Shown: positions 1,252-17,963, numbered from the stretch's first letter. The stretch: DNA of 64,000 nucleotides from an uncultured Clostridia bacterium (GCA_948443805.1 CAOJUB010000002.1:4910-68909), one strand, 5' to 3'. Made by a program: numbers and translations. The notes: generated by a model not told the origin, from the sequence alone.

Positions 1252-1256
1252 TGTTT

Positions 1257-1532: not shown

Positions 1533-1538
1533 GGCTCA

Positions 1539-2396
1539 TCAACCTCTTTCCACACTGATTTTGGATACCCATCCTGTATATTCCTCACCCGATTCGTTGG
1601 TATATTTTACTTCTAACCAACGTGGTATCTCGGATACAACTTTCAATTCTGTATCGTACGAAAGAGTGCATATTATATTTGCTTTTGAATTTGCAGCTTC
1701 TCTCAAATAGGCATGTTCTTTTATAATCCAACAACATTCCGTTTCATTAAAGAACAATGCTTTTGTCTGAGCGACCATGTCTGTATAAAACTCGCAAGTT
1801 TCCGGGATTTGTGGGATAACCATAATCAGATTTAATATAAGCAATACCAACCAAAACTTTTTCTTTACATCCTCAAATTTGTCATACAACGATCTTGGCT
1901 TTTGTTTAAGCTCCTCAATTTGCAATTCAAATTCTTGAGCCACTTCTTCTTTACTAAGAACAATTTCGCCATACTTTACAGACATATCGGAAAGTATTTC
2001 TACTTCTGAGAAATCTATAGCATTAAATGCCAGCGATGACAAGGTGTTTGTGGATATTGAGTGAATTACTTCGCCAATTTGGTATTGACATTGTTCAAGC
2101 ATTCTTTGCAGTGAATCCGTAAAAAAATATGGAGAATATAATTCAGATAATTGCTGAGCTACAGAAGTTAATGGCTCAAATTCAATTTTAGGTATTTTCA
2201 ATGCAAAATCAGACATTGTCCGCATAATTGGTTGTAATGTATTTGCAATAGAAATAGAATTGGCAGCGATAGAATATTGAGATAATGCAGTGCTAATCGT
2301 ATCCAAAATAGGAGGGTGGCAGCACTGCTCAATTCTATCATATATTCGTTGCTGCCTCTCCAAAGCTTCTTCAAAAGGTGACTTTTTATCAAGCAT
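1539..2396 (-). CDS. Hypothetical 285-aa protein with one TM helix and a C-terminal bacterial SH3-like domain
   Basis: Hydrophobic segment FWLVLLILNLIMVIPQI. The C-terminus ...AYLREAANSKANIICTLSYDTELKVVSEIPRWLEVKYTNESGEEYTGWVSKISVE fits the SH3b pattern (W..V.y..G..GWV). Its start lies 1 nt after the SNF2 stop. Confidence 0.6.
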   Translation of the reverse strand: MLDKKSPFEEALERQQRIYDRIEQCCHPPILDTISTALSQYSIAANSISIANTLQPIMRTMSDFALKIPKIEFEPLTSVAQQLSELYSPYFFTDSLQRMLEQCQYQIGEVIHSISTNTLSSLAFNAIDFSEVEILSDMSVKYGEIVLSKEEVAQEFELQIEELKQKPRSLYDKFEDVKKKFWLVLLILNLIMVIPQIPETCEFYTDMVAQTKALFFNETECCWIIKEHAYLREAANSKANIICTLSYDTELKVVSEIPRWLEVKYTNESGEEYTGWVSKISVERG

Positions 2397-2397
2397 A

Positions 2398-5067
2398 TTA
2401 TATATTTTTTTCCTCCACTTTCAATACAAATTCTCTTGTGACCCTTGCGGTCAGCTTTTCTTTTTCGGTAAATTCTTTGATTTGTTCCTCTAATTCCAAA
2501 TCCAGTCGCATGGCGTCAAAAAACTGACTTTCCTGTTTCTTCATATATTCCTGCCGGAGGAGATTGATTTTTTTATCCAACGCAAGCAGCTTTAAGCGGT
2601 CATTTGTAATCGATTCCCGTTCGACTTCTGTCGCTTTTATCTGTCTGTCAAGCGCATCCAAATCATGGGTGAGAGCGGTTTTCTTTACTTTTGCCTTTAG
2701 TTTCATTTGATCGATTTCTTCCGCCTGTGATTGAGAGTATTTCTCCGATTGCCGGGCGATTAAAGCATCGACGTCAACATGACGGTCAAGCTTATGGGTT
2801 TTGCTGCCGTTTTTGAGCCAGTGGGGACTTTTATATCCTTCCTCGGTGTAGGCTTCCACAGAAAGATTCAAAATAGCTTGACATTCTTCCTCCGATAGAA
2901 TTCTATCGGACTGTGTTTTGCCAACCAACATGGGGATTTCAGTTGATATGCTGTTTGCGGAAGAGGAAAGACTGATACTATACAAACCGATTTCACACGG
3001 CTCATAAGCTTCACTCTTTACGCGCAAAGTTCCATTGTCCGCACATGTAAGTGCATGGATAATTCCTCTCCCGATAATACTTGTCAGTGTGATCCTGCTG
3101 TGACGCGGTTTGAAATCCTTTGCCATTCCGTAGGATTTCAGGCTTTGATACGGTTTATTGCGGCTGCCTGTCCAATAATAGAACAATTTCGGCAGTTCTT
3201 TGTAATTGGTGGCAGTAACGGTTTTTTCATCATCGTCGATTATATAGGTACAATCGTTGTGCGTCTCATTATATTGCTCAAAAAAGAATTTTACGATATT
3301 CCACAGTGCGACATTGATTTCCTCTGCCTTTTCACTGATATAATGAGGCGATATTGTAATTTTATCTGCAAGTTCCTTTGTGAATGTAGTAAACAGTACA
3401 TCCTCAGCAGAAGAAACAAGTTGCCTGTTTTTGGCTTCATTCTGTATCAGTGCCTGTTGATAATCGGTTTCCACCTGTGCTTTCGTGCGGATACGCTGCG
3501 ACACTGATTCAAACGCTGTATCCAAATTCTCGGTAAATCCGCCGATCACTTCATCGGTAATACCGAACACACCGTCAGCTACAAGCATTCGTTTATTAAC
3601 AAGCTCTAATTTACGCACATCGGCAAAATTGTTCTTATCAATAAACGCTAAGGAAATGACATCGTTTTCCTGCCCTAATCGGTGGCATCGGTCGATGCGC
3701 TGTTCCATTTTCAAGGTGTTATAAAGCAAATCGTAATGGATAACAAAGGCGGCGTCCTCTAAATTAAATCCTTTCGCGCCATTATCGGTAGAGAGAAGGA
3801 TTTCACCATCCGTCTTGAACTTCTGAATCGTGCTGTAATCCGTGCTGCCATTGTAAATACAGGTTTTATATTTTGGGGATAACAAGGCAGAAAGCATTTT
3901 CTGCGTTTCAACGCTTTCGGTAAAAATGACTACTTTCTTCCTTGCGCCGGATTTTTTCATCAGTGCAAATCCGTTTTTCAGCGCAATAAGCAATTGTTTT
4001 GCTTTTGTGTCCTTTGTAATACTTTCAACAACGGCCAGCATCCGCTGCCATTCGGATAGCTCGTCCTGTGCATCCGGCATCGTTTCCAGCCGTCTAACAA
4101 TGCCTTTGATCGTCTGCAAAATCGCGGCGGTTGAAGAGCTTTGCAAGCTTAAAAGCCGCAGCGCAAGGTCGTATTGATCCATTTCCGGAAAGGCAATTTT
4201 ATTCGGTTTATTTATGTAGGCATAGAGCAGGTCATACAGTTCTCGCTCTTTCGGAGACGCTGTATATTCATTTGTGATTAGAATCCGATTCGGTACTTTA
4301 GCATAATCCTTTGCCTGTGAACGAAGCGTGCGGAAGCAATATTTACTTACTCTTTCGGCAAGTTCGATATAATTCCCCGGTTTTCGCAAATAGCGCGACA
4401 GAAATTCCTGCTCATCGGGCAAAACGGTTTCATCGACAAACCAAATAAGCCCGTACAGATCCATGATATTCTTTTCTATCGGCGTCCCGGTTATCAGCAG
4501 TTTGAAAGAATCATCAGAAATGCGTTTTAATGCTTTTGCCTGTTTGCTATCTTCACGGTAAACAGAGGATAACGCGTTTGCTTCTTCAAATATTGTCAAA
4601 TCCCAGTGAACGTCTTTTGCTGCCGACTCATTATCTGTGACAAAATCATAAGTGGAAATTACGATAGCGTCCTGTAAAAAAGCATTCGTATAATCGTCGG
4701 AGATGTTGGCATTCCAATCTTCACGGTTCGTCAGAACAATATAAGGAATTGTATAATAGCGATCAATCATCTCCGTCCACTGCATGAGCAAATCGGCGTT
4801 GGGAGTGACAAGTAAAATACGACTGTGGCTTTCCACCCATTTTTGTGTGATGACAAGCATCGCCTCATGGCTTTTTCCCATTCCGGCTTCATCACAAAGT
4901 ATGACGCCTTTTTGATAGGGTGAACGCAAAGCAAAATTTGCTGCCGCAATTTGGAACGGATAAATTTTAATGTCGGAAGAAGCAAACGCAGGAACAAACC
5001 CATCCTCGCCGGACAGGCTATCCAGTATTCTTGCTGTGTAATAAGCATGAAACGGCGTTTGCTGCAT
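2398..5067 (-). CDS. SNF2-family (SF2) helicase with a long C-terminal extension and coiled coil
   Basis: Motif I LCDEAGMGKSHEAM, motif II WDLTIFEEANAL, motif VI QRIDRCHRLGQ. The track start at 5091 is a TTG; the ATG at 5067 (MQQTPFHAYY) is preceded by GGAAGGAAG. Confidence 0.9.
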   Translation of the reverse strand: MQQTPFHAYYTARILDSLSGEDGFVPAFASSDIKIYPFQIAAANFALRSPYQKGVILCDEAGMGKSHEAMLVITQKWVESHSRILLVTPNADLLMQWTEMIDRYYTIPYIVLTNREDWNANISDDYTNAFLQDAIVISTYDFVTDNESAAKDVHWDLTIFEEANALSSVYREDSKQAKALKRISDDSFKLLITGTPIEKNIMDLYGLIWFVDETVLPDEQEFLSRYLRKPGNYIELAERVSKYCFRTLRSQAKDYAKVPNRILITNEYTASPKERELYDLLYAYINKPNKIAFPEMDQYDLALRLLSLQSSSTAAILQTIKGIVRRLETMPDAQDELSEWQRMLAVVESITKDTKAKQLLIALKNGFALMKKSGARKKVVIFTESVETQKMLSALLSPKYKTCIYNGSTDYSTIQKFKTDGEILLSTDNGAKGFNLEDAAFVIHYDLLYNTLKMEQRIDRCHRLGQENDVISLAFIDKNNFADVRKLELVNKRMLVADGVFGITDEVIGGFTENLDTAFESVSQRIRTKAQVETDYQQALIQNEAKNRQLVSSAEDVLFTTFTKELADKITISPHYISEKAEEINVALWNIVKFFFEQYNETHNDCTYIIDDDEKTVTATNYKELPKLFYYWTGSRNKPYQSLKSYGMAKDFKPRHSRITLTSIIGRGIIHALTCADNGTLRVKSEAYEPCEIGLYSISLSSSANSISTEIPMLVGKTQSDRILSEEECQAILNLSVEAYTEEGYKSPHWLKNGSKTHKLDRHVDVDALIARQSEKYSQSQAEEIDQMKLKAKVKKTALTHDLDALDRQIKATEVERESITNDRLKLLALDKKINLLRQEYMKKQESQFFDAMRLDLELEEQIKEFTEKEKLTARVTREFVLKVEEKNI

Positions 5068-5094
5068 TTTGTACTTCCTTCCATTTATCAAGAT

Positions 5095-5210
5095 TTATGT
5101 CTTGAAACCTTTATAGTAGTAGCTGTGGTCGATGCCTTCATTTAGACCTAATGACTATGAATATCATCGGTTAGAGCAGCTTTGAGAATATGTTTAATAG
5201 GACTGTTTGC
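5095..5210 (-). pseudogene. Decayed ghost of a fic gene 3' end
   Basis: The nucleotide sequence aligns by eye to the 3' end of the intact fic gene (5377-5525). Translation gives KHILKAALTDDIHSH* and, in another frame, GLNEGIDHSYYYKGFKT*, versus KHILKAALTNDIHSREVYMKGIDHSYYYEGYSTFKTEEL in the intact copy. Confidence 0.6.
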
Positions 5211-5414
5211 TCAAATCAACACTTCCCATTTGCCGTATCTCTTTCCACTTTCTCTGCGGATATAGTTCTTTTCCTGCAAAGATTTCATCAGTCGTTTTAC
5301 GGTGCTGAGGGATTTACATTGATGTTCCAAAGTGTCAAATTGACACTTTGGAATTAAAAAATGATACTTTGGGATTTTACAATTCCTCCGTCTTAAAGGT
5401 CGAATACCCCTCAT
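5211..5414 (-). pseudogene. Probable remnant ORF encoding only a C-terminal winged-helix segment
   Basis: The 67-aa ORF overlaps the fic 3' end. Only the tail SLSTVKRLMKSLQEKNYIRRESGKRYGKWEVLI looks like the wHTH that ends large Fic or AlbA_2-type proteins. The N-terminal part is Arg/Lys junk. Confidence 0.4.
5325..5353. repeat. Perfect 14-bp inverted repeat with a 1-nt centre (ttccaaagtgtcaa a ttgacactttggaa), plus a third half-site-like copy at 5361-5373
   Basis: Read directly from the sequence. It lies 24 nt downstream of the fic stop, and no T-run follows on either strand. Confidence 0.6.
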
Positions 5415-5982
5415 AGTAATAACTGTGGTCGATGCCTTTCATATAGACCTCACGGCTATGGATATCGTTTGTCAGAGCAGCCTTGAGGATATGTTTGATT
5501 TCGATATCCTTAATCGGACTACGCTCCATGGCAAGCAGGTAATCCTCTCTATCTACCTTGCTCCAGTCGACTATCTTACCGATCTCCTTCTTAAAGATGC
5601 AATCCAACCAAATGCGTGTACTTCTGCCGTTGCCTTCACGGAAAGGGTGAGCAATATTCATTTCAACATACTTTTCGATGATTTCATCAAAGTTGGACTG
5701 AGGCATTTTATCAATGTTTGCAAGTGCTGCTTCAAGATACATCAGCGGTGCAAAACGAAAGTTACCTTTTGAAATGTTTACAGTGCGTATCTCTCCGGCA
5801 AAAAAATAAATATCGTCAAACAGGTATTTATGAATCGCTTTCAATGATTCGAATTTGCCTGCTTCTAATTTATCGAGAATCCCGTTTCCAAAAAGTTCGA
5901 TTGCTTTCTTTTTACTGATTCTTTCTTCCGCTTCGGCAATTTCGGGCGAGCTGGTAATGCCTAATTTATTTTTAGGCGCCAT
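5377..5982 (-). CDS. fic: Fic-domain protein (AMP-transferase family), class III with a C-terminal auto-inhibitory helix
   Basis: Fic motif HPFREGNGRSTR and C-terminal S-x-x-x-E-G (SYYYEG). The start was chosen at MAPKNK (ATG 5980-5982), 1 nt after the HTH stop; the track start at 6033 overlaps the HTH gene. Confidence 0.9.
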   Translation of the reverse strand: MAPKNKLGITSSPEIAEAEERISKKKAIELFGNGILDKLEAGKFESLKAIHKYLFDDIYFFAGEIRTVNISKGNFRFAPLMYLEAALANIDKMPQSNFDEIIEKYVEMNIAHPFREGNGRSTRIWLDCIFKKEIGKIVDWSKVDREDYLLAMERSPIKDIEIKHILKAALTNDIHSREVYMKGIDHSYYYEGYSTFKTEEL

Positions 5983-5983
5983 A

Positions 5984-6205
5984 TTATTTATCCCCCTTTG
6001 TTTCGTCGGGAATAAGTTCCATGATATCGCCAATATCGCAGTTCAGGGCAGCGCAAATTTTTGTGAGGGTATCTACGGTCACATTTTCGCCCTTCGTCAT
6101 TTTTGTTATGGTATAATTACTGACATCGGCAACACGGCATAAATCTTTTTTCTTCATGTCGTGATCGATCAGTAGTTTCCAGAGTTTTTTATAACTAACA
6201 GCCAT
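5984..6205 (-). CDS. XRE/Cro-C1-type HTH protein (73 aa), putative antitoxin or regulator of fic
   Basis: MAVSYKKLWKLLIDHDMKKKDLCRVADVSNYTITKMTKGENVTVDTLTKICAALNCDIGDIMELI is a typical HTH_3 sequence. The RBS gaggtg precedes the ATG at 6205. The 195-aa track ORF is an upstream over-extension. Confidence 0.85.
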   Translation of the reverse strand: MAVSYKKLWKLLIDHDMKKKDLCRVADVSNYTITKMTKGENVTVDTLTKICAALNCDIGDIMELIPDETKGDK

Positions 6206-6246
6206 ATAGCACACCTCGAAAAACTGGAATATAGTTTTACAGATAT

Positions 6247-6275
6247 AGTATATCACAATTTTATACAAATTGCAA
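6247..6275 (-). promoter_or_regulatory. Sigma-70-like promoter for HTH-fic (TTGCAA-N17-TATACT)
   Basis: rc: ttgcaa tttgtataaaattgtga tatact, located about 40 nt upstream of the HTH start. Confidence 0.45.
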
Positions 6276-6448
6276 CAGCATAACAAAGCGATAACTTTAT
6301 TTTTGATTGATAACTCTCTAAACTTTAACGTAAAAACAACTTTCAAGCTAAAAATCGATACCTCGCACATGACTTTGTGTGTTCTTCGCCGTAACCGGGG
6401 CACCGATTTGCACGGCCAAAGCGGTATAATTATGGTAAAAAGTAGCCC

Positions 6449-6507
6449 TGTTCTATGAGAAATTCTAAGAATTGCTTTTAGAAATTTCTTAGAACTCGAG
6501 CAAAAGC
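6449..6507 (+). repeat. Copy A of an imperfect ~59-bp direct repeat (partner at 17964-18022)
   Basis: Collinear identical blocks gttctat / aaattctaa / tagaactcga at the same offsets in both copies. I counted about 38 of 59 identities without gaps. Confidence 0.5.
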
Positions 6508-6638
6508 ATAGATCCTTTGCGACATTGATTTTGACACGGTTTTCGAGATGTCCCAAAAAGCCTAAAAACACGGCGATTTTCAGGCTTCCTGTAACTTCCT
6601 TTATCTTCCGTCAGATTCAGTTAACTTCTGTTTTGCGT

Positions 6639-6700
6639 GAATGACTCGAAATCAGTTTGGGAGCAATCCCACGCGGGTTCGAATCCCGCCCTCTGCGCCA
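6639..6700 (+). tRNA. 3' fragment (~62 nt) of a class II tRNA-Ser(CGA)-like gene; the 5' half is missing (att-site-type remnant)
   Basis: Anticodon arm aatga-CTCGAAA-tcagt, variable-arm hairpin tggga-gcaa-tccca, T-arm gcggg-ttcgaat-cccgc, acceptor 3' strand cctctgc + g + cca. No complementary 5' acceptor strand (gcagagg) or D-arm is present upstream. Confidence 0.7.
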
Positions 6701-6729
6701 ACGCGGCTTATGTCCGCGCAAAAAATAAG

Positions 6730-6754
6730 CTGCAAGGAATTCCTTGCGGCTTTT
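6730..6754 (+). terminator. Hairpin (gcaagg-aatt-ccttgc) plus T-run directly downstream of the tRNA fragment
   Basis: A perfect 16-nt palindrome at 6732-6747 is followed by ggctttt. Confidence 0.55.
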
Positions 6755-6778
6755 CACATATGAAAGGACTGCCCATCT

Positions 6779-7273
6779 ATGGCATCAAGAAAACCGATTG
6801 TCCGGCAAACAGCATGGCTGTCTCTCATTCCGCAGATATTGTTTATAGGTGCTTTATACATAATTTATAGTTTCTTTATTGAGTCTAAACTTTTCTCCAT
6901 TTACCTTACATTGCTTACGTATTTGTTTCTTTCTATAACTTTAAGATCTTCCTTATCACGCTACCACAGAAAAGGGATGACTCTTGTTAAAAAAGAAAAA
7001 TATGAACAGGCAATAGAAGCATTTCAAAAAAGTTATTCGTTTTTTTCAAAATATACATGGATTGATCAGTACCGATTTATTACAATGCTTTCCTCCAGTA
7101 AAATTTCATATCGGGAAATGGCGCTCCTAAATATTGCTTTTTGCTATTCGCAAATTGATAACGGAAAAAATTCAAAAGATTATTACTTAAAAACGATTCA
7201 GTATTTTCCGAATAGTGAAGTCGCTAAAGCATCCTTAAAGATGATTCGATCTATTAAAAACCAAAACGAATAA
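6779..7273 (+). CDS. Hypothetical membrane protein (2 TM) with a TPR-like C-terminal half
   Basis: The ORF track shows hydrophobic stretches WLSLIPQILFIGALYIIYSFF and LFSIYLTLLTYLFLSI, then EKYEQAIEAFQKSYSFF...ALLNIAFCYSQIDN. Confidence 0.5.
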   Translation: MASRKPIVRQTAWLSLIPQILFIGALYIIYSFFIESKLFSIYLTLLTYLFLSITLRSSLSRYHRKGMTLVKKEKYEQAIEAFQKSYSFFSKYTWIDQYRFITMLSSSKISYREMALLNIAFCYSQIDNGKNSKDYYLKTIQYFPNSEVAKASLKMIRSIKNQNE

Positions 7274-7557
7274 TTCTCTCTCGTTCTCTAAACAAAATTC
7301 TGTAAATTTTAAAACATTTGGCAAAACAAAGAAAAAAGATGTATAAACGGTTTGAGCGGGCAAATGAATCTCCTCATTCACTTTCTCACGGACTTGTATT
7401 ACGATTGGTTGAACAAAGCCAAACAGGCACGGGACGAATATCTCGCAGGCCAAATGTCAGCGGAAGAGGCGCTTCGTATTATTACAGCAGAATAAAAAAA
7501 CAGGCAGCGGGCAAGGTCAACATCGAGTTGATTTTATTCGCTGCCTATCTTGATATT

Positions 7558-7834
7558 TTATTTATTATCCGTGTTCTGCACCACTTCGATAAGCAGCTGC
7601 ACTGCAAGTTTGAAGCCGGCGGTGAAAACCTGCAATTTTTTCATACCGTGCAGTTTGGATTCACCGTTTTTGAACTTTTCAAATATCTCTTTCTGCCGTT
7701 CGTTGAGTGTTGCTATCAAATCATCCTGATATCGGATGATATATCATAACATTTCACCGTATGAGCTCCCACGCTTAAAGCTGCATTCCTTCAGAATTTG
7801 TTGCCGTAATATAAATCTTCAAGTGTTGTCCTAT
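7558..7834 (-). pseudogene. Decayed small helical-protein gene of a type I associate with Firmicutes conjugative or mobile elements
   Basis: RBS aaggag + 9 nt + ATA (not ATG). There are three frame-broken pieces: HLKIYITATNSEGMQL*, ..SSYGEML*, and RYQDDLIATLNERQKEIFEKFKNGESKLHGMKKLQVFTAGFKLAVQLLIEVVQNTDNK*. The family resemblance is from memory only. Confidence 0.4.
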
Positions 7835-7931
7835 GTATTGTATCTCCTTTTGCAACACATAGATATAATACAAGATCTTTCACAGATCCAACTTTTTTCC
7901 GATATAAAATCAAAAGTACCGCGAATACGCT

Positions 7932-8123
7932 TTATTCTTGTTCTTCGGTTATTGACAAATCGATATAACAATCCTTACTTTTAAAACTTCTGCGCAAATA
8001 ATCGTGACCACCATCTACAGCGCAAGCACCACATTTACATTTTACATATTCATGGCGATCCGTTGATTCAATAATATCTCCGCATAATTTGCATTGAATT
8101 GCATTCTTAATGATCTTTCGCAT
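7932..8123 (-). CDS. Small Cys-rich zinc-ribbon protein (63 aa)
   Basis: MRKIIKNAIQCKLCGDIIESTDRHEYVKCKCGACAVDGGHDYLRR... carries CxxC...CxCxxC. The RBS aaggag lies 8 nt before the ATG at 8123. It is the last gene of the minus-strand operon. Confidence 0.6.
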   Translation of the reverse strand: MRKIIKNAIQCKLCGDIIESTDRHEYVKCKCGACAVDGGHDYLRRSFKSKDCYIDLSITEEQE

Positions 8124-8189
8124 ATGACGATCTCCTTTGTAGTACAACAACATGCCACAGGGATTTTATGAAGTCCATAGAAAACATAT

Positions 8190-10997
8190 TTATTCCGCAA
8201 GGGTCTGTTTTCTTTCAATATCGCTACAAACCATTCGTGTTACATAATTTGCATCGTGTTTACAGGTTTCAATAATATATTCATACGATTCTTTGGTAAT
8301 GCCAGGAACATGTAGAATATGTTGTAAAATCAAATTTTTAATATACACATTATCACGCTCGATCAACGAAACAATATGGCGATTAATAATTTCTCGATTA
8401 TCCGTATTTCGTAATAGCGCTAATAAAATCCTTGTGGAATTCCAACGTATATCAACATAATCTGTATGCATCCACGCAAAAGCATAATGAAGTATGGTTG
8501 TTTCTATCGGCTTCTGAAAAGCCACATTAGAAGACAGTTCTAAGTAATTAGCAATAAAACTCGTAACAGAAATTGTTGTTGCGATATTATCTTTAAGATA
8601 AGGGAATAATTCGAGTAAATCCGCATGCACATCAATACCCATAGCAGAAAATAATATTTTAAGGCTAATAGTCAATGCAATGTTATCAATATTAGATGAG
8701 AACGGAAAACTGTCACCGGCTATTATTTGTGATTCATTTTCTAATATATTTCTATAGATATCTTTATTATGTTCATACGATTTAGGATATTTTTCAATTA
8801 TGCAACATAACAGAGCAACCGCATCCATTTTAGTAGATAGTGATTCGCTTGACTCAAGCAAAGTTTGAGATACTGCTAAAATTATAGAATCAATTAAGAC
8901 ATCTTCATATTGTTGATCGCTATCTAATAATATCGATTTAATTGTGGCAATTTCTCTTGTTCCGTGACCAAAATACCTGCCGTTCTTTCCTTGTGTTTCG
9001 TTATTATTCTTGACTATTTCAAGATTCTTATTTAAGAATACCGGGTAATCTGAAACTTTATTCTCTGTAGTTTCAAGTCGATAATTATTGTAATAAAATT
9101 CCGGCAAATATGTCTCTACGGTTTTATCGAGTTCATTAGTTAATTCGCGATTTTGATTTCTAATTACACACAGAAAAAAAGGACTTCGTTTTACTAATTC
9201 ACAATCATTTTGCAAAACATCAATGATACTCGCAATTAATTTTTTTGCATTTTCCTCCCGCATTTTAGTTATATCAATTCTTTTTGATATAAGTTTAAAC
9301 ATGTCCATATACCATCGGCTAAGGCGTTTCTGAACGAATTTGCAACATATTTCTGCTAAAACATCTTGTGATAATCGATGAGACACATTTGAAAGGTTTT
9401 TAAAAACACTTTCTCCAATTGAAATATTTTTGTCTTCATCATCAATCCAAGCGTAAATAATTTTTAGCATTGAAGATTCATAAAAGCGGAATTTTTCGTC
9501 ATTTAAATAATATCCAACCGTTGCAAAGCCAAGCAATTGCTGCCGTATTCTTTTATGAGTTATTGGATGCAATGAACAAAAATCCATTATTTTTTCCGCG
9601 TCAGCATCAGAAAGCTTGCTCAGTATTTCTGGGAAAGTGTTTTGAATACCTATCACTTCTTTTTCTTTTCCGCCTCTTATTGCATACTTAAGCAAATCTC
9701 TGCGAAAAGACCAATCATCATATCTGCTTGATAAATAAAAGAGGAATTCTTTTTCTTTATCAAAAAGCATAAGGATATGTGTTAATGAACCATTATACAT
9801 AGCAACTATGAATGTACTTGCCAGCAGTTTACCAAATTCGTTCAAATTTCCGCCTAAAGAAACAGTATACGGCGACTCGGTTTTATGTTTATATAATCCT
9901 TGTATATATTTTTCTTGTAACGATTCATTACACCTATCAATCACAGGATAATACAACTCATCCTGACTTTCGTCCAATTCTTTTTGTGCTTCAGATTCAA
10001 AGTAGGTATTCTTTTGTTCGCACAGTTCCCAATGTTGATTTCGTAGATCAATCAAAATATCCTTTATAATCCACGAGGGTTGTTTTGTTTCTTTTGCAAT
10101 CTTAAGCGCATCACTGAGGTACTTTACGCTATCATCTATCTTTCCATTAAAATATGATTGAATTGCTTGCCATCTTAAACTAACAACATTAAAAACCTCT
10201 TTGTCTTGAATAGATTTCAAGCACTCTAAAAACATTGAAACATTAAACTCTTTAATAGTTTTCCCTTCGAACATGATTGGGAGAAACTGAACTCCCCAAT
10301 CATCCAGTTCACTGGTCTGTATAGGATCGTCCGGAAAGCGAGAAAATGATATTCCTGTAATAGAGCGCAATATATAATCTGTAGTTTTATCAATATTCTT
10401 TAGTACAGATTTTGGGAAACTCATGTTTTGACAAGTACTTACAGAAGTTATGTCAATGTCTTTTGTAGACTCCCATTCTGTTTCAGACATTGAGATTTTC
10501 CCTTGACAATAATAATGATAAATGCGAACTATATCACTCAACAATGCTGTTGCACCATTTTTACTAAGGTCGTTAAAGGTGTGCACAGTTTTACTTTTTG
10601 TAAAATTTGCACCCATTAAGCTTTTTTCTAATGGCGTTTTTTCTTTTTGATTTTCATCACAAAAATAGTATAATGCTTTGATCTTATTTCGCTGTACCAC
10701 ATCTATTTCTGCTTTTACGCCATCCGGTATCCCGTCAGCATTATCAATAAGAAAAATACATATATCAGAATCTTCAAGCGCAAAAGTATAATGTACTCCC
10801 GCGCTAAGTGTGGATGCTTCTTCACCCTCAAATGTATACACTTCTGCCAAACCAGTTTTTTCGATAGATTCTTTGAGTTCAGCACGAATAGGATCATACT
10901 TTGGAGGTTCCTCAGCCCTATCGCACTTTGAACTGATAAAAACCTTGATTTTTTGTGACGGTATTACTTGCATACTTTCTTTTTTTTGATTAATCAT
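8190..10997 (-). CDS. 935-aa protein: N-terminal DUF4062-like (TIR/deoxyribosyltransferase-like Rossmannoid) domain plus ~800 aa of TPR/HEAT-like helical repeats
   Basis: The N-terminus KVFISSKCD..IRAELKESIEKTGLAEVYTFEGEEAS...SDICIFLIDNADG..GVKAEIDVV..KIKALYYF follows the DUF4062 pattern as I remember it. The rest is helical-repeat-like (e.g. SVKYLSDALKIAKETKQPSWIIKDILIDLRN; IRWNSTRILLALLRNTDNREIINRHIVSLIE). No Walker A/B motif was seen. Confidence 0.7.
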   Translation of the reverse strand: MINQKKESMQVIPSQKIKVFISSKCDRAEEPPKYDPIRAELKESIEKTGLAEVYTFEGEEASTLSAGVHYTFALEDSDICIFLIDNADGIPDGVKAEIDVVQRNKIKALYYFCDENQKEKTPLEKSLMGANFTKSKTVHTFNDLSKNGATALLSDIVRIYHYYCQGKISMSETEWESTKDIDITSVSTCQNMSFPKSVLKNIDKTTDYILRSITGISFSRFPDDPIQTSELDDWGVQFLPIMFEGKTIKEFNVSMFLECLKSIQDKEVFNVVSLRWQAIQSYFNGKIDDSVKYLSDALKIAKETKQPSWIIKDILIDLRNQHWELCEQKNTYFESEAQKELDESQDELYYPVIDRCNESLQEKYIQGLYKHKTESPYTVSLGGNLNEFGKLLASTFIVAMYNGSLTHILMLFDKEKEFLFYLSSRYDDWSFRRDLLKYAIRGGKEKEVIGIQNTFPEILSKLSDADAEKIMDFCSLHPITHKRIRQQLLGFATVGYYLNDEKFRFYESSMLKIIYAWIDDEDKNISIGESVFKNLSNVSHRLSQDVLAEICCKFVQKRLSRWYMDMFKLISKRIDITKMREENAKKLIASIIDVLQNDCELVKRSPFFLCVIRNQNRELTNELDKTVETYLPEFYYNNYRLETTENKVSDYPVFLNKNLEIVKNNNETQGKNGRYFGHGTREIATIKSILLDSDQQYEDVLIDSIILAVSQTLLESSESLSTKMDAVALLCCIIEKYPKSYEHNKDIYRNILENESQIIAGDSFPFSSNIDNIALTISLKILFSAMGIDVHADLLELFPYLKDNIATTISVTSFIANYLELSSNVAFQKPIETTILHYAFAWMHTDYVDIRWNSTRILLALLRNTDNREIINRHIVSLIERDNVYIKNLILQHILHVPGITKESYEYIIETCKHDANYVTRMVCSDIERKQTLAE

Positions 10998-10998
10998 G

Positions 10999-11620
10999 CT
11001 AACGTATCCACCTTATTTTTTCTTTGTCTGAGTCATAGCTTATATCCTCAAGCATCATTTCACGATCTTGTTTTGGAAGGCTGTTTATATACTTATCCCA
11101 ATCTAAAATAGAATAATTAAAGAATGTGAACTTTTCCTTGTTCTTTTTATAGTAATTCTCTGCTGGCAAACATAGGATCATACAAAGTCTTCTTACACTA
11201 ACGCTATATTCGCGGTGCTCTACGCCATCATTATCTATTGTTAGTGTTCCTGCTTCACCACCATATATTTTAAAAGGTTTTTCAGTTTCAATAACTATTT
11301 TAAAGTGTTCAATAGGACAATTTTTCTGATTATGGCGTTTCTTATATTCGTCATTATCAAGATTAGGGTTCCCTTGATGAAATAGTGGACCTCTAAAATT
11401 ATATACAATTTCCCCACTCAAATAAGGCATGTCCGGCACTCCATCCATGGGAGGAGATTTTTTGTATTTCCCGATATGCTCTATAACGGATTGTAGAGCC
11501 CTTATTGGGATATTCAGCTTTGCCGCATATATCGGGAAGCGTTAGCGCTAATGATAAAGCAGCAAAATACAAATTATGAGATAAAGCTGTATTTATCTCT
11601 TCAATAAGTTTTATTATCAA
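10999..11620 (-). pseudogene. HEPN-like (R-x4-H) protein gene split by a frameshift in an A6 (T6 on +) tract
   Basis: ORFs 11399-11620 and 10999-11448 overlap in different frames. Joining them at the run at 11458-11463 gives ...STIRYRAYREIQK|KSPPMDGVPDMPYLSGEIVYNFRGPLFHQGNPNLD... (about 207 aa). The N-terminal helix is YFAALSLALTLPDICGKAEYP and the R-x4-H motif is RGPLFH. Its stop is 1 nt before the start of the 935-aa gene. Confidence 0.55.
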
Positions 11621-11641
11621 AGCACAATCCTCCTTTGCCGA

Positions 11642-12713
11642 CTAATTACCTTTCAAATATTTCATAAGCTGTACGGTTGCTTTGCTACGTCCCTGAACGC
11701 TTGAAAGACCGTTTTCTTTAAGTTCTCTCAGCGGATACTTGTCCGGGGCGTATTTTTCTATGAGCTTTAATCCCATATAACGGATGTCGGAATCTTTAGC
11801 CAACTCCTTATAATAGGGATAGTCCTCGTCCGAGCGGTTCCCGTACAAATCGGCGGCAATTACTTCGCATTTATACATAATGGCCTTGTATTTTTCACCG
11901 ACGTAAATATAAACGGTATCGCCAACCGACGTATTGGTGGACTGGCGCCATTCGATTACGTCCAAACTATCAAAAGCGGCTACAATATCGTAATATTTCG
12001 GATTGCACGGAATCACCCATACGTCATCAAGCCGAGAGAAAACCTGACGTCCTTCAGCTTTTGCACGAATATCATTTAACCACTCGCCGTTATACTTAAA
12101 ATAACGCGGTCCGGCAACACCCCATTTGCTACCGAGCAGTTCGGTGGCAAGGGCAGAAAGAGACAATTTTCTACCCTCATATTCCACGGTCTTATCGTCA
12201 ATAACGCTACACTGTGCACCGGAGTTTGCATTACCCTGACTAACAAACGTAATGGTAGCGCCTACGGGAATATTACACTTAGAGAATGTGAACGGTGCCA
12301 TGCGCTCGATGTGTTGTTCTTCGATATCCTGTGCCAGTTCTTCGCTCTGTCGTTCTACCGCCGTCGGCTCATACAAGTGAAGTCTATCTTTGCGACCGCC
12401 TAATACAGCGATGGTTTCAAGGATAGAATACGCCTGTTCGGGCGACATAGCGTAAAACTCACGCACTCGATTTTTACCGTCTACGTTGTCAATAGAGCGC
12501 AGATTAGGATTGAGTTGGTCGATCAGAGCATGGAGCTTTAAATCCGTCAAGCGTTCATCAACCTCGTATGTAGCATAAATGCGGAAAGAAAACGGAATGC
12601 ACTCGCTGTTATTCAGTTGTTTTAACCGTGATTCCACGTTATCGGCATAACCGATTTTTACGTATTGAGGGAATGACGGGTTTTCCAGAATATATTACTC
12701 CAGATTCTTTCAT
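11642..12713 (-). pseudogene. GIY-YIG superfamily (T5orf172/MUG113-type) N-terminus + unassigned middle module + C-terminal EVE/PUA-like domain; the 5' end is frameshifted
   Basis: The RBS gaggtg plus ATG at 12713 opens MKESGVIY..., which stops after 24 codons. The main frame reads *YILENPSFPQYVKIGYADNVESRLKQLNNSECIPFSFRIYATYEV...EFY. The C-terminus is VWVIPCNPKYYDIVAAFDSLDVIEWRQSTNTSVGDTVYIYVGEKYKAIMYKCEV. The track start at 12637 is an internal GTG. Confidence 0.6.
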
Positions 12714-12736
12714 AAGCACCTCAAATATTTGTTTTA

Positions 12737-15493
12737 TTATTGCACACAAAACCGCATCTTTTGCATTGAAAGCAACGATTGTTTAATTGACTCATAATGT
12801 TCCTCTATACCATAAGCACGTAAAACGGTAATGTCAAAATTACGCCTATCCTCCAGGGTCAACTCAACACTTGTATGCTCGACTTGTCTATCTAATAAAG
12901 GTTCAAACGCTTCTAAAATTGCATTCTTATTTTCATTAGATAAGAGTTCAGGATTAAGCATAAATGCATTTCTAATTGTTGTGCTACTTATATCTAAGGC
13001 TCCAAGCCCTCTTCCAAAACCAACCGCCTCAATATAAAACATTCCTAATATTGAATTCAATAATGCATGATATAATGATACTTCTGTATATCCAGATTTC
13101 TTTTTCAAACCAATAAGTCTTTGGTTAATAAAAGTCGGCTCATCAAACTTGGCAAAAAACAACCTTCTATCAGGATTCATAGTTGTTACTATATCAGCGG
13201 TATTGGTCGATGCCATTTCATACCATTGCATATTTCTTCTTGCTAAAACTTCAGGCAATGGACGGCCTACGCCATTTACACCATTTTGGAATCGTGCTAT
13301 CCAAGATAATGCACCTTGATGATTTTGCATCCTCAATTCATCTAAACTTAACGCACAACAAAAAGCATCATTATCTGCTTCGGCTTTAAGAGTATCTATG
13401 TTTCTTGCATTTTTAAGCACCTTTTTAATATATACTTCTTCGATGCCGTGCCCATTTTCAGGATAAAACATTGTGTCCCAACCACGGCGTTCTCCACGAA
13501 CAACAGTAAAAACAGTAGAAATAGGGCACAGTTTTTCTCTGATATCAAGTAACCAGCGTATGTTGTGGAAAAGAGCTGAAAGAGAAACGTTCATATCAGC
13601 CAATGCTGCGATTTCTGATTTTGAATACTGCTTATAGCTCATTATACTATCATTAATTTCTCTGTTCAACAAAGATGAATTTACAATAGTATCACGTATA
13701 GATGTATCTGCGTAAATTTCAGATAATTTGTTGTGCCAAACGCAAAACGCTGTTTGTTCACCATCAGTGGGATGTTCGATATGATCTTTTTTAGAAAAAA
13801 TCGTGATTATCGTAACCACCTGTGCATTATTAAACCAGCGTTCCGCATCGCTGATGTGTATTTGATCGATTTTATAATAAAAGCCAAGTGCCTTAAATAA
13901 TTCCTTTCCCGCTGTCGTACCCAACCAAGAATTTGAAGTGATTATTCCTAAACGACCATTATTTTCAATAATTTCATATAACGAAAACAAAATATATGAA
14001 TAATAATCACTTCTATTGCTTAAAGCAATATTGGTATGTTGCAGGACATTTTCTCTAATGGTATTAATATATCTCCAGTCACTATCGGATATTTTTTCAA
14101 AAGGGATAAAAGGCAAATTAGAAACTACCGTATCAAACTTCGGAATTTGAAATGTCATCGCTTCACCATTAATTGGATTGGTGATATTGATTTCATCGCC
14201 TTCTCGCAATTCAAAAACATTTTTTTGAAATATTTTGTTGGGAAGGTTAATTGCTTCGACATTTGTCATACTTATGGTTGCCAATTGTAATGGAAGTGAG
14301 AACTTATCTTCCGCCCAAGTTGAATTAACGGCATTTTCGATATTCCCCAGGTTATCCCTTTTATTATTCAATATAGCTTTTGGAATAGAGCCCGTGCCAC
14401 AACAAGGATCTATCGCATTACCAGACCAATTTAGCGTTGTCAAACAAACTAATAATTCTGCTAATATATCCGGGGTAGTAAACTGACCATTTAACTCTCT
14501 TTTAGTAATAGCTACAGTTTTCTCGAGAACATTTTGAAGAGTACCTTGCTCAATTTGACGAAGTCCATTGTCTTTTAAGAAAATATTTAAATCCATCAGA
14601 TCATGCCAAGTGTCCGCTGGGATGTGGTCATTATGTTCTATACTATTAAAAATATTAAAAAAGTCACATGTTGCAGTAATATTTTGAAAGATTTCGTTTG
14701 CATGATTTACTTCAGACTCAAAATCTAATGTTTCAATAGTCAGAGCACCATTATGACGCGATTTTATTAAATGCGCAAAAATGATTCTGTTAGTCCAATT
14801 TATAAGAAGTGCTTTAGCATATGCATCATACATATTAGTTTCATCATAGGTGTACTCTGTTTGTACTTCGTTCCACCATACTGATAAAAACGCATTGATT
14901 CTTGCATCTAAAACAGCTGCACTATGCAATTCTGCGCTGACCAATGTTTTGTTTCGTTCAATAATTTTGGAAATAATTGTATCCGATAAAAATTCACCAA
15001 TCTCTGTTCCGCGAATATCGCCTGATATTAAGAATGCATTTATTTCTATAAGTATTCTTTCGATAATTGGCAGCCACTCATTTTTGTATCTTTCAACATC
15101 TTCTCGTGTTTGTATATGGTTGGTTTCATTCCACTGCCGAACAATCTCGAACTCATCATCTTCATTTTTTACATATAGCACACCTGCTGTAAAGTTCCAT
15201 ATAAAACAACTATTCAGTCCTAATGAACGTGCTTTACGTATCGCATCTTCAATAAAAGCATTGTCAGTTATGGTGGTATCGGGCAGTTTCAACTCCCAAC
15301 CTTGCAGAATTTGTGTTTGATTCTCGTCGCCATAAAGCAACACATCTGGGAACATGCTTCTATGGCCTGTTGAAATCGTACTTTCTCCTCCTGCTCTTAC
15401 GATTCGCAAGCCCATAGTTTGCAGTTTAATATTTATATCTGAAATCATAGAGATTGCCCAACTACGTTCATTTCGTCTTACTATTGTCGGCAT
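12737..15493 (-). CDS. Type IIG (Eco57I-like) bifunctional restriction endonuclease / gamma-class N6-adenine methyltransferase, 918 aa
   Basis: N-terminal PD-(D/E)xK candidate FPDVLLYGD...QGWELKLPD. MTase motif I NAIDPCCGTGSIPKA precedes motif IV VVSNLPFIPF. A long C-terminal region is consistent with a target-recognition domain. Confidence 0.65.
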   Translation of the reverse strand: MPTIVRRNERSWAISMISDINIKLQTMGLRIVRAGGESTISTGHRSMFPDVLLYGDENQTQILQGWELKLPDTTITDNAFIEDAIRKARSLGLNSCFIWNFTAGVLYVKNEDDEFEIVRQWNETNHIQTREDVERYKNEWLPIIERILIEINAFLISGDIRGTEIGEFLSDTIISKIIERNKTLVSAELHSAAVLDARINAFLSVWWNEVQTEYTYDETNMYDAYAKALLINWTNRIIFAHLIKSRHNGALTIETLDFESEVNHANEIFQNITATCDFFNIFNSIEHNDHIPADTWHDLMDLNIFLKDNGLRQIEQGTLQNVLEKTVAITKRELNGQFTTPDILAELLVCLTTLNWSGNAIDPCCGTGSIPKAILNNKRDNLGNIENAVNSTWAEDKFSLPLQLATISMTNVEAINLPNKIFQKNVFELREGDEINITNPINGEAMTFQIPKFDTVVSNLPFIPFEKISDSDWRYINTIRENVLQHTNIALSNRSDYYSYILFSLYEIIENNGRLGIITSNSWLGTTAGKELFKALGFYYKIDQIHISDAERWFNNAQVVTIITIFSKKDHIEHPTDGEQTAFCVWHNKLSEIYADTSIRDTIVNSSLLNREINDSIMSYKQYSKSEIAALADMNVSLSALFHNIRWLLDIREKLCPISTVFTVVRGERRGWDTMFYPENGHGIEEVYIKKVLKNARNIDTLKAEADNDAFCCALSLDELRMQNHQGALSWIARFQNGVNGVGRPLPEVLARRNMQWYEMASTNTADIVTTMNPDRRLFFAKFDEPTFINQRLIGLKKKSGYTEVSLYHALLNSILGMFYIEAVGFGRGLGALDISSTTIRNAFMLNPELLSNENKNAILEAFEPLLDRQVEHTSVELTLEDRRNFDITVLRAYGIEEHYESIKQSLLSMQKMRFCVQ

Positions 15494-15498
15494 ATTCT

Positions 15499-16350
15499 TT
15501 ACCTCGTTTCAAATTCTGAAATCAAATTTGTTGATGCTATATGACTCTTTGTTTTTTTATCAATAGATTCCCACGCTAAAAATAGTCGTCTTTTAGCAAC
15601 GTCAATATAATCAATTTCATCTTTTTTAAATAATGCAACATCTTCGTTTTTTTCTATTCCTATAAAGTTTCTGCCTTCCATTAAAGCTGCAACTAAAAAT
15701 GAACCGCTACCAAAGGTGTTGTCTAAAATCACATCTCCTGGATTAGAATATGTTTTGATAAAATAGCGTCCTAATTCTACTGGCTTTTGCGTAGGGTGAA
15801 CGACCTCGCCTTCGCACTCTGCTGTCTTAATATAAATTATATCAGTAGGGTAACGTTCTCCATCACTCTGAACGTGTACTGGTTGAAAATCGCCATAACT
15901 ACCACTCAATTGGTTTTTGCGAACACCTTTATCGTAGGGAACACCACTCGTCATTTGTGGGTTATATGTTGGTTGCTTTTTGTAAAATACACACACATCT
16001 TCGTGTTTTCTGAGCGGTTGTTTTTTTGCATTCAGGAAATTAGTTGGCTTCGATTTTTCCCAAATCCACTTGTATTTATAAAGATTCGGCTGACTTAATA
16101 TAAGTTTTGCAGTAAACAGACCTTGCGATGTCAAAACTATGGCACCATTAGGTTTTATTATCCTATTGTATTGTTCCCACAGTTGTTCTAATGGAATATA
16201 ACTATCCCATTGGTTTTGTGTGATTCCATACGGCAAATCGCATAAAATCATATCTATGCTTTCATCGGGCAATTTTTTCATCACCTCAATGCAGTCACCT
16301 TCAAACAATTTATTAACCAATGGATATATTTTTGATGTAATATCAATCAT
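15499..16350 (-). CDS. Beta-class site-specific DNA methyltransferase (N6A/N4C; PF01555-like), 283 aa
   Basis: Motif IV ILCDLPYG, then HPTQKP, then motif I ILDNTFGSGSFLVAA. A 5-nt gap separates it from the downstream IIG gene. Confidence 0.9.
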   Translation of the reverse strand: MIDITSKIYPLVNKLFEGDCIEVMKKLPDESIDMILCDLPYGITQNQWDSYIPLEQLWEQYNRIIKPNGAIVLTSQGLFTAKLILSQPNLYKYKWIWEKSKPTNFLNAKKQPLRKHEDVCVFYKKQPTYNPQMTSGVPYDKGVRKNQLSGSYGDFQPVHVQSDGERYPTDIIYIKTAECEGEVVHPTQKPVELGRYFIKTYSNPGDVILDNTFGSGSFLVAALMEGRNFIGIEKNEDVALFKKDEIDYIDVAKRRLFLAWESIDKKTKSHIASTNLISEFETR

Positions 16351-16467
16351 TATTTTTGCTCCTATAACATTCTTGAGTTAATTTTCCAAACTGTATCATC
16401 CAAAACGAGATGATTAGGTTATTTCAGCCTAACACCGTTTTATTGTGGTCGGCTTCCAGCTTTACTT

Positions 16468-17769
16468 TTAATCTTTCTTCATATACTTTTTACTGCTGCC
16501 GCGGCCGACTATAACGATTAGTCCTTCTTTTTCCATTTGCTTCATCAGCGTATAGGCGCGAGTGTTTTTGATTTCGAGTAATTCTTGCACCTCGCTGTCG
16601 GTGATTTGACCGTTTTCTTCAATGAAATCAAGGACAATCTGCATTTGGGGAGTGATGGCTGCCGTCGCAGTCATCGTTTCTTTCGCATTATTACTGTTCA
16701 TATTGGGAAGAACGATTTTGAAAGTATTCGCCGTAACTTCAATACGGGGCTGAACAGCGCAATTACTGTAAAAATTATAAATTCTGCGAATACCCGTGCC
16801 GTAGGATTCAATCAAGTGCAGACGGTGAAATACTTCTGCAAGTTTTTTGTTGCGCGGCTGAGAAATTCCGCTGCGAATATCGTCAGGAGATAAGCCGGGC
16901 AACAAGCCGCCTATTGATATAAATTCCATCTCGTTATCATTCACGTTGATAATGATACTGCCGCTGAAACTGTAATCGCGATGCACGATTGCATTGAGTA
17001 ATGCCTCGCGGATAGCTTCCTGCGGATAGTCGGAGCTTTCCACTCTCTCCAATCCTTTGAAGGTTGAGACTGTTTTATTGCATAGCATCAGATAGCCGAA
17101 AGAATCCTCAAGCTGTTCAAAAATTGAGCCTGTGAATTCTTTGCTGTCGCGGAATTCAGTGTTGGAATCATTTCCGAACACAGCAACCTTTGTTGTGTGC
17201 AGACACTGGTCGGATAAGAGGAGAGCCAGATTGGTGTAAAGCGAATTGGAATCGTCGGTAATTCCGAGGACGCGATATTTTTCCTCTGAGAACTCCACAT
17301 TATATTTTTTGAACATTTTCTCTGCGGCGTGGAAGGAAAGGGATTGTTCCATAGAACGCATATCTTCAAACACATCGCCGTCCGATTCTTTAATCATTCG
17401 GCGGATTTGTTCAGGAGAAGCCTGCGTGCTTGACGCGCCTTGGCGGATATATACGCCGCTGGGTTTCAAACCCTTTGATTTGAGATAATACGGCTTATAG
17501 CTACCCTCGCCGACAGTAATTTTTACGACCTTATTGTCCTGTAACGTGTATTTTATAAACATCGTAACATCCGGCTGAATAGCGTCTCGAATACCATTGG
17601 TAATTCTTGTGTAGGTTTCGTCTACGTTATCAATGCCAACCACATTACCGTTATCGTCAATTCCGATATATATCGTTCCGCCGTCCGTATTTGCAAAAGC
17701 AATTACTTCTTTATAAATCTCATCCGTAATCTGTAATTTAAATTCAATATTTTCGGTTTCAAATTTCAT
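16468..17769 (-). CDS. AlbA_2 (Schlafen-like) + HATPase_c_4-like + C-terminal wHTH protein ('putative transcriptional regulator' type)
   Basis: ENIEFKLQITDEIYKEVIAFANTDGGTIYIGIDDNGNVVGI; REALLNAIVHRDYSFSGSIIINV; C-terminal ELLEIKNTRAYTLMKQMEKEGLIVIVGRGSSKKY. Confidence 0.8.
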   Translation of the reverse strand: MKFETENIEFKLQITDEIYKEVIAFANTDGGTIYIGIDDNGNVVGIDNVDETYTRITNGIRDAIQPDVTMFIKYTLQDNKVVKITVGEGSYKPYYLKSKGLKPSGVYIRQGASSTQASPEQIRRMIKESDGDVFEDMRSMEQSLSFHAAEKMFKKYNVEFSEEKYRVLGITDDSNSLYTNLALLLSDQCLHTTKVAVFGNDSNTEFRDSKEFTGSIFEQLEDSFGYLMLCNKTVSTFKGLERVESSDYPQEAIREALLNAIVHRDYSFSGSIIINVNDNEMEFISIGGLLPGLSPDDIRSGISQPRNKKLAEVFHRLHLIESYGTGIRRIYNFYSNCAVQPRIEVTANTFKIVLPNMNSNNAKETMTATAAITPQMQIVLDFIEENGQITDSEVQELLEIKNTRAYTLMKQMEKEGLIVIVGRGSSKKYMKKD

Positions 17770-17801
17770 GGGAAAATGCCTCCGTATTATATTACAATAT
17801 C

Positions 17802-17830
17802 ATTATACTCTTTTTTTTCACAAAAATCAA
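17802..17830 (-). promoter_or_regulatory. Promoter of the AlbA_2-type gene (TTGATT-N17-TATAAT)
   Basis: rc: ttgatt tttgtgaaaaaaaagag tataat, located about 30 nt upstream of the ATG at 17769. Confidence 0.5.
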
Positions 17831-17838
17831 CCGAATAA

Positions 17839-17863
17839 AGTGAAAATTCAGCGAATTTTCACT
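17839..17863. repeat. Perfect 11-bp inverted repeat with a 3-nt spacer (agtgaaaattc agc gaattttcact), just upstream of the -35
   Basis: Read directly from the sequence. It is operator-like. Confidence 0.55.
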
Positions 17864-17963
17864 TTAAAAGAGAATAAACCTACACAATTTTGTGTTTCGT
17901 ATGCCTCAACCGGTGCTTTTTATTGCACTGCCAAATGGGTGATTTTCGTGTGAAAACACCCGC

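Follow-up and report, generated by a model that had tools for sequence, protein, structure and literature searches.

The DUF4062 domain has been renamed NIR and is described as a TIR-like NADase in phage defence (10.64898/2026.05.01.722283; 10.64898/2026.09.04.749371). NIR NADases have been reported in Swarozyc, PsAvs2, Vulcan, Vesta and TEP1, with published catalytic glutamates at E97 in KpSwz, E98 in Vulcan, E103 in VstA and E108 in PsAvs2. Vulcan from Enterobacter roggenkampii (WP_050009967.1) is one polypeptide that carries a NIR domain at its N-terminus and HEAT repeats at its C-terminus, acts alone, depletes NAD+ and causes growth arrest at high multiplicity of infection in an E98-dependent manner when triggered by a small lambda protein (10.64898/2026.09.04.749371). 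Swarozyc (KpSwz) combines, in a single protein, DUF4062, with E97 as the catalytic residue, and an AUX domain, and is activated by the phage portal (10.64898/2026.05.01.722283). Here, we analysed a 64,000-nucleotide stretch of DNA from an uncultured Clostridia bacterium (GCA_948443805.1, CAOJUB010000002.1:4910-68909), hereafter the window, which encodes a 935-residue protein, hereafter the giant. The giant is probably an autonomous single-protein abortive-infection gene of the NIR(DUF4062)-HEAT type, with the architecture of Vulcan. An earlier sequence-only reading of the window had matched the giant and its two small neighbours, as a set, to no named system, a statement since overtaken by the 2026 preprints, in which the NIR NADase Swarozyc and the single-protein NIR + HEAT Vulcan are named. 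The giant and its parts are located as follows, in window coordinates.

8190-10997, minus strand: intact 935-aa gene of the giant, a DUF4062/NIR TIR-like N-terminal domain fused to a HEAT-type helical solenoid.
10503-10955, minus strand: NIR/DUF4062 TIR-like domain, residues ~15-165 (PF13271 matches in the family; five strand-helix units in the model).
10827-10829, minus strand: codon of E57, which lies in TFEGEEAS where the BB-loop starts and is the other near-invariant acidic position (E in 65 of 66 members).
10707-10709, minus strand: codon of E97 (GVKAEIDVV, helix αC), the predicted catalytic glutamate (E in 65 of 66 aligned members).
8193-10400, minus strand: all-helical HEAT/ARM-type solenoid, residues ~200-935, the presumed sensor (AlphaFold helices, Foldseek, conservation).

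The 935-aa open reading frame (ORF) and the peptides KVFISSKCD, FEGEEAS and ALYYF previously read in it were all found in place. Its family comprises at least 892 homologues at 90% clustering and 669 clusters at 50% identity, 311 of which reach E<=1e-30; nearly all members span ~900-960 aa and can be aligned over their full length at identities as low as 23%. Scans of the window protein itself against Pfam, PADLOC, NCBIfam and PHROGs returned no usable match, and DUF4062 was exposed only by scanning many N-domains of the family. Scanned singly, 34 of 36 had PF13271 (DUF4062) as the top Pfam family (best E=1.4e-7), with minority matches to CAP12-PCTIR_TIR (9), TIR_2 (7) and Nuc_deoxyrib_tr (5). 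Four of ten divergent members passed the PF13271 gathering score (25.6-32 bits versus a cut-off of 24.7), and precomputed PF13271 annotation was found on ~33 of 120 divergent homologues. Judged by these profile matches, the N-terminus of the giant is, at the level of the family, a divergent DUF4062/NIR TIR-like domain, as had been proposed. A sequence search of the PDB with the N-domain profile retrieved only chance-level GTPase and kinase matches.

The AlphaFold model of the giant (mean predicted local distance difference test score, pLDDT, 89.6; predicted template modelling score, pTM, 0.76) shows five strand-helix units at residues 17-164, followed by a disordered linker (170-191) and then only helices up to residue 935. 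The elements of the N-domain, with block-mean pLDDT values of 80-91 up to residue 160, are βA (17-22), αA (34-46), βB (51-54), αB (66-75), βC (79-85), αC (92-103), βD (107-113), αD (122-126), βE (135-138) and αE (143-164), and the topology of the model, with its five strand-helix units, is that of a TIR-like fold. The ~740 residues of helix that follow, mostly predicted with pLDDT >90, bear out the long helical-repeat region initially suspected. Foldseek ranked CAND1, the PP2A A-subunit and the importin-beta family first among PDB structures (probability 0.95-1.0), which indicates that the solenoid is of HEAT type. No Walker A motif was found in the giant, and no NTPase family was assigned by Pfam, PADLOC or NCBIfam; with residues 200-935 entirely helical, the protein lacks a P-loop and a STAND NTPase, again in keeping with the first reading.

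Within the N-domain, F20 and S22 are invariant across 66 aligned sequences, and the position of E97 matches those of the catalytic residues KpSwz E97 and Vulcan E98. The sequence-only reading had singled out the glutamate of FEGEEAS, E57, which is indeed conserved, but E97 is by position and spacing the likelier equivalent of the published catalytic glutamate. The solenoid contains a cluster of invariant or near-invariant polar residues (9375-10175; residues 275-541), namely R275, W309, D313, D317, R319, Q338, Y350, P351, D354, R355, G403, S404 and R541, which may dock the NIR domain, mediate oligomerisation or form a ligand pocket.

Many homologues of the giant (P0036, P0117, P0241 and others) open with a conserved leader, MGVRLTGISTPVGGVSWEY, within their N-terminal ~30 aa and ahead of the NIR domain. 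Within Pfam DUF6650, the match of this leader is confined to the first 26-30 positions (E~1e-8). DUF6650 was thus rejected as a domain of the giant, given that the match covers only the ~28-residue leader, which is missing from the window protein.

With regard to function, phage-triggered NAD+ depletion by a single protein is most likely, by analogy, because the giant has the architecture of Vulcan and a conserved E97 at the matching position. NADase chemistry, trigger and defence phenotype would accordingly be those of a sensor-effector in one chain: in the uninfected cell, the N-terminal TIR-like NIR domain would be kept inactive; upon infection, the C-terminal HEAT solenoid would bind a phage-derived protein, and this binding would relieve inhibition or drive oligomerisation, so that the infected cell would be arrested.

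Several points weigh against this proposal. The N-domain of the window giant itself is sub-threshold against PF13271 (13.3 bits, E=0.098), so that the DUF4062 assignment draws on family-level evidence. Moreover, the PF13271 alignments end at approximately profile position 62-66 of 82, before the glutamate, and for this reason we infer the equivalence of E97 from spacing and helix position. The giant is not covered by any PADLOC 2.0 model, and tblastn against 72,556 plasmids and 50,697 phage genomes found no relative of it. The likeness to Vulcan, compared by description, may be architectural only; a fixed polar cluster would not be expected in a repeat scaffold whose only task is to bind variable phage proteins; and the NIR proteins Nwd1, Nwd2 and NPHP3 showed no NADase activity.

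The last point leads to the best-surviving alternative, namely that the giant is a NIR-HEAT defence protein whose N-domain is not a bulk NAD+ hydrolase, but instead produces a nucleotide-derived signal, hydrolyses other nucleotides (NDT- or CMP-hydrolase-like) or acts as an oligomerisation module only. In its favour, the five Nuc_deoxyrib_tr matches (best E=9.8e-6) stand beside those to TIR_2 and CAP12-PCTIR_TIR, the NIR domain of PsAvs2 was earlier annotated as a CMP hydrolase and has a CMP hydrolase among its top structural matches, and some eukaryotic NIR domains lack NADase activity, for which the authors speculate on functional diversification. However, NAD+ depletion has been seen with each bacterial NIR system examined to date, no signal-reading partner effector is conserved next to the giant, and the candidate catalytic glutamate is conserved, so we regard this alternative as unlikely.

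Autonomy of the giant was assessed by synteny, as the sequence-only reading had included it in a three-gene defence module with the two ORFs that flank it, as follows.

7932-8153, minus strand: DUF7695 zinc-ribbon ORF, 73 aa from the first ATG (63-aa core, PF24749, E=9e-28).
10999-11620, minus strand: small gene, a pseudogene of a ~206-aa R-x4-H family, split into overlapping ORFs 10999-11448 (149 aa) and 11399-11620 (73 aa).

The sample consisted of 28 loci with giant homologues (16 distinct loci from other lineages), which were searched by tblastn with the intact small protein, DUF7695 and T5orf172, the product of the next gene upstream, and by applying the small-family profile to all ORFs. 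The small gene was found by tblastn in none of the 28 loci, and the profile retrieved nothing at E<=10 among all ORFs of the 16 distinct loci. The zinc ribbon was confirmed as the 63-aa core of the DUF7695 ORF, but its occurrence is limited to loci with a giant of at least 95% identity (L009-L013), and it is missing from L014 (94%) and from all other lineages; it is an optional passenger and not part of the system. Likewise, DUF7695 and T5orf172 co-occur only beside giants of at least 95% identity, and one further relative of T5orf172 (35% identity) lies ~4 kb upstream of the giant in L026. The immediate neighbours of the giant, both upstream and downstream, are unrelated between lineages, and the upstream gaps, usually 90-300 nt, are consistent with an independent transcription unit. 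Among the flanking ORFs, which include restriction-modification (R-M), GmrSD, HNH, AAA_5, HEPN, integrase and resolvase genes, no family occurs in more than 4 of 108. By synteny, therefore, the three ORFs are not a conserved module and the giant is autonomous: that three adjacent genes run in the same direction, all on the minus strand, holds for the window, but their adjacency is not conserved.

An intact small gene is found beside 95%-identical giants in L045 and L046, which belong to the same lineage (91-93% DNA identity), and is missing beside 94-96%-identical giants in L009-L014. The small-gene cassette of ~655 nt sits exactly at the start codon of the giant (window 10963-11620 versus L013:5990-6010). 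Comparison with L013 revealed that it took over the ribosome-binding site (RBS) and TTG start of the giant, with the RBS GCAAAGGAGG..GTGCTTTG driving the giant in L013 and the small gene in the window, and that the giant gained a new 12-residue N-terminus, MINQKKESMQVI, together with a new RBS from the 3' end of the cassette. This N-terminus resembles the beginning of the 175-aa gene located downstream of the small gene in L029, a gene that was ruled out as a relative of the giant, to which it is unrelated. The arrangement suggests that cargo genes of this hotspot are exchanged by recombination at junctions between the RBS and the 5' end of the coding sequence. Because cargo genes are swapped at such RBS/start-codon junctions, tight spacing alone is no evidence of a functional module, and adjacency within a defence hotspot can mimic an operon. 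The ~206-aa gene is thus an optional cassette, inserted at the start of the giant in one sub-lineage and inactivated in the window genome. The features relevant to its inactivation are the following.

11377-11394, minus strand: RGPLFH, the conserved R-x4-H motif of the small gene.
11481/11482, minus strand: junction of a 14-nt deletion, the real frameshift of the small gene (DNA alignments versus the intact genes in L029, L045 and L046).
~11014-11026, minus strand: A-run with a 1-nt insertion, the second lesion (DNA alignment with L045 and L046).

The peptides YFAALSLALTLPDICGKAEYP and RGPLFH, on which the first description of the small gene was based, are present, but the frameshift is not located at an A6 tract: repair by a slip at that tract was ruled out by the alignments with the three intact genes, which showed the 14-nt deletion instead. 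The latter corresponds to the loss of AACTTTGGTATGAT-type sequence, i.e. codons KLWYD including an invariant W and an invariant Y, and in protein alignments the window copy lacks this conserved stretch. The 1-nt insertion destroys the ancestral stop (after DKEK) and lengthens the small ORF by IRWIR to 1 nt before the ATG of the giant, and the gap measures 15 nt in relatives in which the small gene is intact. The 1-nt stop-to-start spacing previously reported does exist, but it is a by-product of decay, because the insertion removed the normal stop. According to these alignments, the small gene is a doubly lesioned pseudogene in the window, and the giant beside it keeps every invariant residue.

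Elsewhere, the small family is typically intact. The query joined across the A6 tract retrieved at least 835 homologues, of ~197-210 aa, in which the R and H of the R-x4-H motif are invariant across 17 sequences; across 38, H is invariant and R conserved in at least 90%. A TLPDIC motif is also invariant, the following G is conserved in at least 90%, and several W, Y, R, C and D positions are conserved too. The AlphaFold model of the small protein (pLDDT 86.6) consists of helices and a three-stranded sheet, with R-x4-H in helix 74-87. Foldseek found nothing in the PDB at E<=1e-3, and HEPN proteins recur only among the weak fold matches, namely Csx1 (E=0.32, probability 0.38), AbiV and AF_0298 (both E~1.4). 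A Pfam scan of 17 members gave no HEPN family at E<=1, sequence searches yielded no PDB match at E<=10 and nothing in PADLOC or NCBIfam, and the sole family match was PHROG 18591, whose function is not described. A fold search of BFVD retrieved only two uncharacterised phage homologues. The family shares with HEPN abortive-infection RNases (AbiV, Csx1/Csm6, HEPN-MNT) a conserved R-x4-H in a helix, a small and mostly helical protein, and a defence and R-M neighbourhood; it differs in its own invariant TLPDIC motif and in its three-stranded sheet. The canonical four-helix HEPN core has no such sheet. Of the HEPN assignment initially made, the conserved motif therefore stands, but HEPN identity is possible and unproven, since the fold matches no solved structure significantly.

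Homologues of the small gene occupy Type I R-M operons, where they lie between hsdM(-rhuM) and hsdS (L030-L036); others follow Eco57I-like methylases (L038), adjoin HinfI R-M and a Dam-type methylase (L029), or lie near KAP and AAA_15 ATPases, and the R-M genes that they neighbour include Types II, IIG and III. Temperate phages have a homologue beside the lysis cassette, and no giant is present in any of these R-M, ATPase and phage settings. In a Lentilactobacillus buchneri phage-plasmid (L043:2147-2755), the homologue lies between lysis genes and the integrase, and in Erysipelothrix phage SE-1 (L044:3998-4510) it lies just downstream of the lysis genes. The slot between lysis genes and integrase is the usual prophage site for exclusion or defence genes.

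These habitats also bear on the two remaining alternatives. The first, that the ~206-aa protein serves the giant as a functional accessory in one lineage, for example as a second effector or regulator, and was lost in the window only recently, would fit with a cassette placed precisely at the start codon of the giant, sharing RBS and operon, and with the intact copies kept in L045 and L046; it is nonetheless improbable, as the sister elements L009-L014 work without the gene, the window copy bears two independent lesions, and the family normally resides in R-M operons and prophage accessory slots, away from any giant. The least credible, largely refuted already by synteny, is the original proposal of one module in which a TIR-like sensor-effector is paired with a HEPN RNase and a zinc ribbon: the window genes are adjacent, co-directional and tightly spaced, and the metagenome contigs L045 and L046 repeat the order of T5orf172, intact small gene and giant, but these contigs are one lineage, equally close giants (L009-L014) and all 16 distinct loci lack the small gene, its homologues reside in R-M operons and prophages without a giant, it is broken while the giant is intact, DUF7695 is confined to near-identical loci, and the 1-nt coupling stems from the 1-nt insertion.

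Beyond the autonomous NIR-HEAT reading of the giant, we tentatively consider, as a possibility that we would not favour at present, that the ~206-aa family is an undescribed single-gene abortive-infection or toxin family, and that the polar cluster of the giant solenoid is a ligand or peptide pocket. The small family may work hand in hand with restriction systems, and the pocket could be formed by R275, W309, D317, R319, P351, D354, S404 and R541. As it is embedded in R-M loci, the ~206-aa family is a reasonable candidate for screening and the more open question; the window copy is only a relic.

The remaining genes around the giant are the following.

11642-12637, minus strand: T5orf172/MUG113-like gene (PADLOC single-gene candidate PDC-S57, E=2.6e-77; Pfam T5orf172/MUG113 matches weak).
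12737-15493, minus strand: Type IIG restriction-modification enzyme (PADLOC REase_MTase_IIG, E=1e-257; Pfam N6_Mtase and Eco57I).
15499-16350, minus strand: N6/N4 DNA methyltransferase, a separate gene (PADLOC MTase_II, E=3e-69; Pfam N6_N4_Mtase).
7558-7719, minus strand: truncated DUF6809 gene (PF20648, E=1.2e-9, covering only profile positions 41-85 of 85, the C-terminal half).

The T5orf172/PDC-S57 gene is the upstream neighbour of the giant in the lineage of the window only, with 94%-identical copies in L009-L013 and L046. The block of R-M genes and giant is headed by a gene with SLFN_AlbA_2, HATPase_c_4 and winged helix-turn-helix (wHTH) domains (16468-17769, minus strand), and a gene with the same set is found in Lachnospiraceae bacterium 10-1 (L005:6352-7884), directly upstream of a 52%-identical giant. 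A second defence-like block (2398-6571, minus strand) contains an SNF2 helicase, a Fic adenylyltransferase (NmFic-type, PDC-S04) and a Cro/C1 helix-turn-helix (HTH) gene. The best matches of the helicase are to DISARM DrmD (PADLOC E=2e-88), yet far under the NCBIfam equivalog cut-off, and no further DISARM components were seen in this block. Between the two blocks lies a sequence that resembles the 3' part of a tRNA-Ser(CGA)-like gene (6640-6702, plus strand), comprising the anticodon loop, a long variable arm, the T-arm and the acceptor end GGGTTCGAATCCCGCCCTCTGCGCCA. It lacks the 5' half, was not called by ARAGORN and is unique in the window, and it is probably the remnant of an attachment (att) site at the border of two integrated elements, the SNF2/Fic/HTH block and the block of R-M genes and giant.

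Guanine-cytosine (GC) content is 0.32-0.44 across positions 1-18000 (0.32-0.38 around the giant) versus 0.40-0.55 in the rest of the window, and a pst-type phosphate transporter operon that begins at 18189 marks the edge of the island. The location of the giant in a defence island beside R-M genes, as first described, was corroborated by PADLOC and Pfam (Type IIG R-M, PDC-S57, Fic/PDC-S04, DrmD-like SNF2 and SLFN_AlbA_2 ATPase). The genes around it, i.e. T5orf172/PDC-S57, the Type IIG R-M enzyme, the ~206-aa R-x4-H gene and DUF7695, each form a cargo cassette of their own within the variable part of a low-GC mobile element or defence island. Full-length DUF6809 genes lie downstream of the cargo in elements that are otherwise different (L009:13152-13436, L029:9471-9755 and L038:8419-8688), and a 69%-identical ORF occupies the same position in L014 (9098-9388). 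Two of these DUF6809-bearing elements, L009 and L038, also carry AAA_25, MobC/NikA and relaxase genes. DUF6809 seems to mark the conserved border of a cargo hotspot shared by a family of mobilisable elements from gut Clostridia. A megablast search of positions 7800-12700 against complete Escherichia coli genomes and against plasmids detected no near-identical DNA.

Among characterised systems, Avs and NLR-like proteins with a NIR effector (PsAvs2) resemble the giant in the N-terminal NIR effector and the C-terminal repeat sensor. They differ in their central STAND NTPase, as the giant lacks a Walker A motif and contains no alpha/beta domain beyond residue 165. A ThsA-type partner or a CBASS/Pycsar cyclase was likewise found neither among the window genes nor among the ORFs flanking the homologues, so that the distinction drawn early on from Avs, Thoeris and CBASS/Pycsar was upheld. 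Swarozyc, a DUF4062 NADase that works through abortive infection as a single protein, is similar, with E97 as its catalytic residue and a C-terminal domain that senses a phage protein, the portal. However, AUX is described as helical stalks together with a hairpin and an alpha-loop-beta motif, which encircle the portal, whereas the giant has a HEAT solenoid of ~740 residues.

The closest counterpart is Vulcan, with which the giant shares an N-terminal NIR domain fused directly to HEAT-type repeats without a STAND NTPase, a single gene that is autonomous by synteny, a defence-island context, and a glutamate, E97, at almost the same position as Vulcan E98. The two differ in that the giant family comes from gut Clostridia (Oscillospiraceae, Lachnospiraceae and Massiliimalia) and Vulcan from Enterobacteria, in that tblastn found no relatives of the giant family in the plasmid collection, and in the invariant polar cluster of the giant solenoid. 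If this cluster were indeed a pocket, the giant clade would differ in sensor type from the characterised Vulcan. The giant probably represents a new, large and divergent clade of gut Clostridia, unannotated in Pfam, among the newly recognised NIR/DUF4062 NADase defence proteins. Its family supplies conserved residues for mutation, and takes the Vulcan-type architecture of NIR and HEAT without an NTPase well beyond Enterobacteria.

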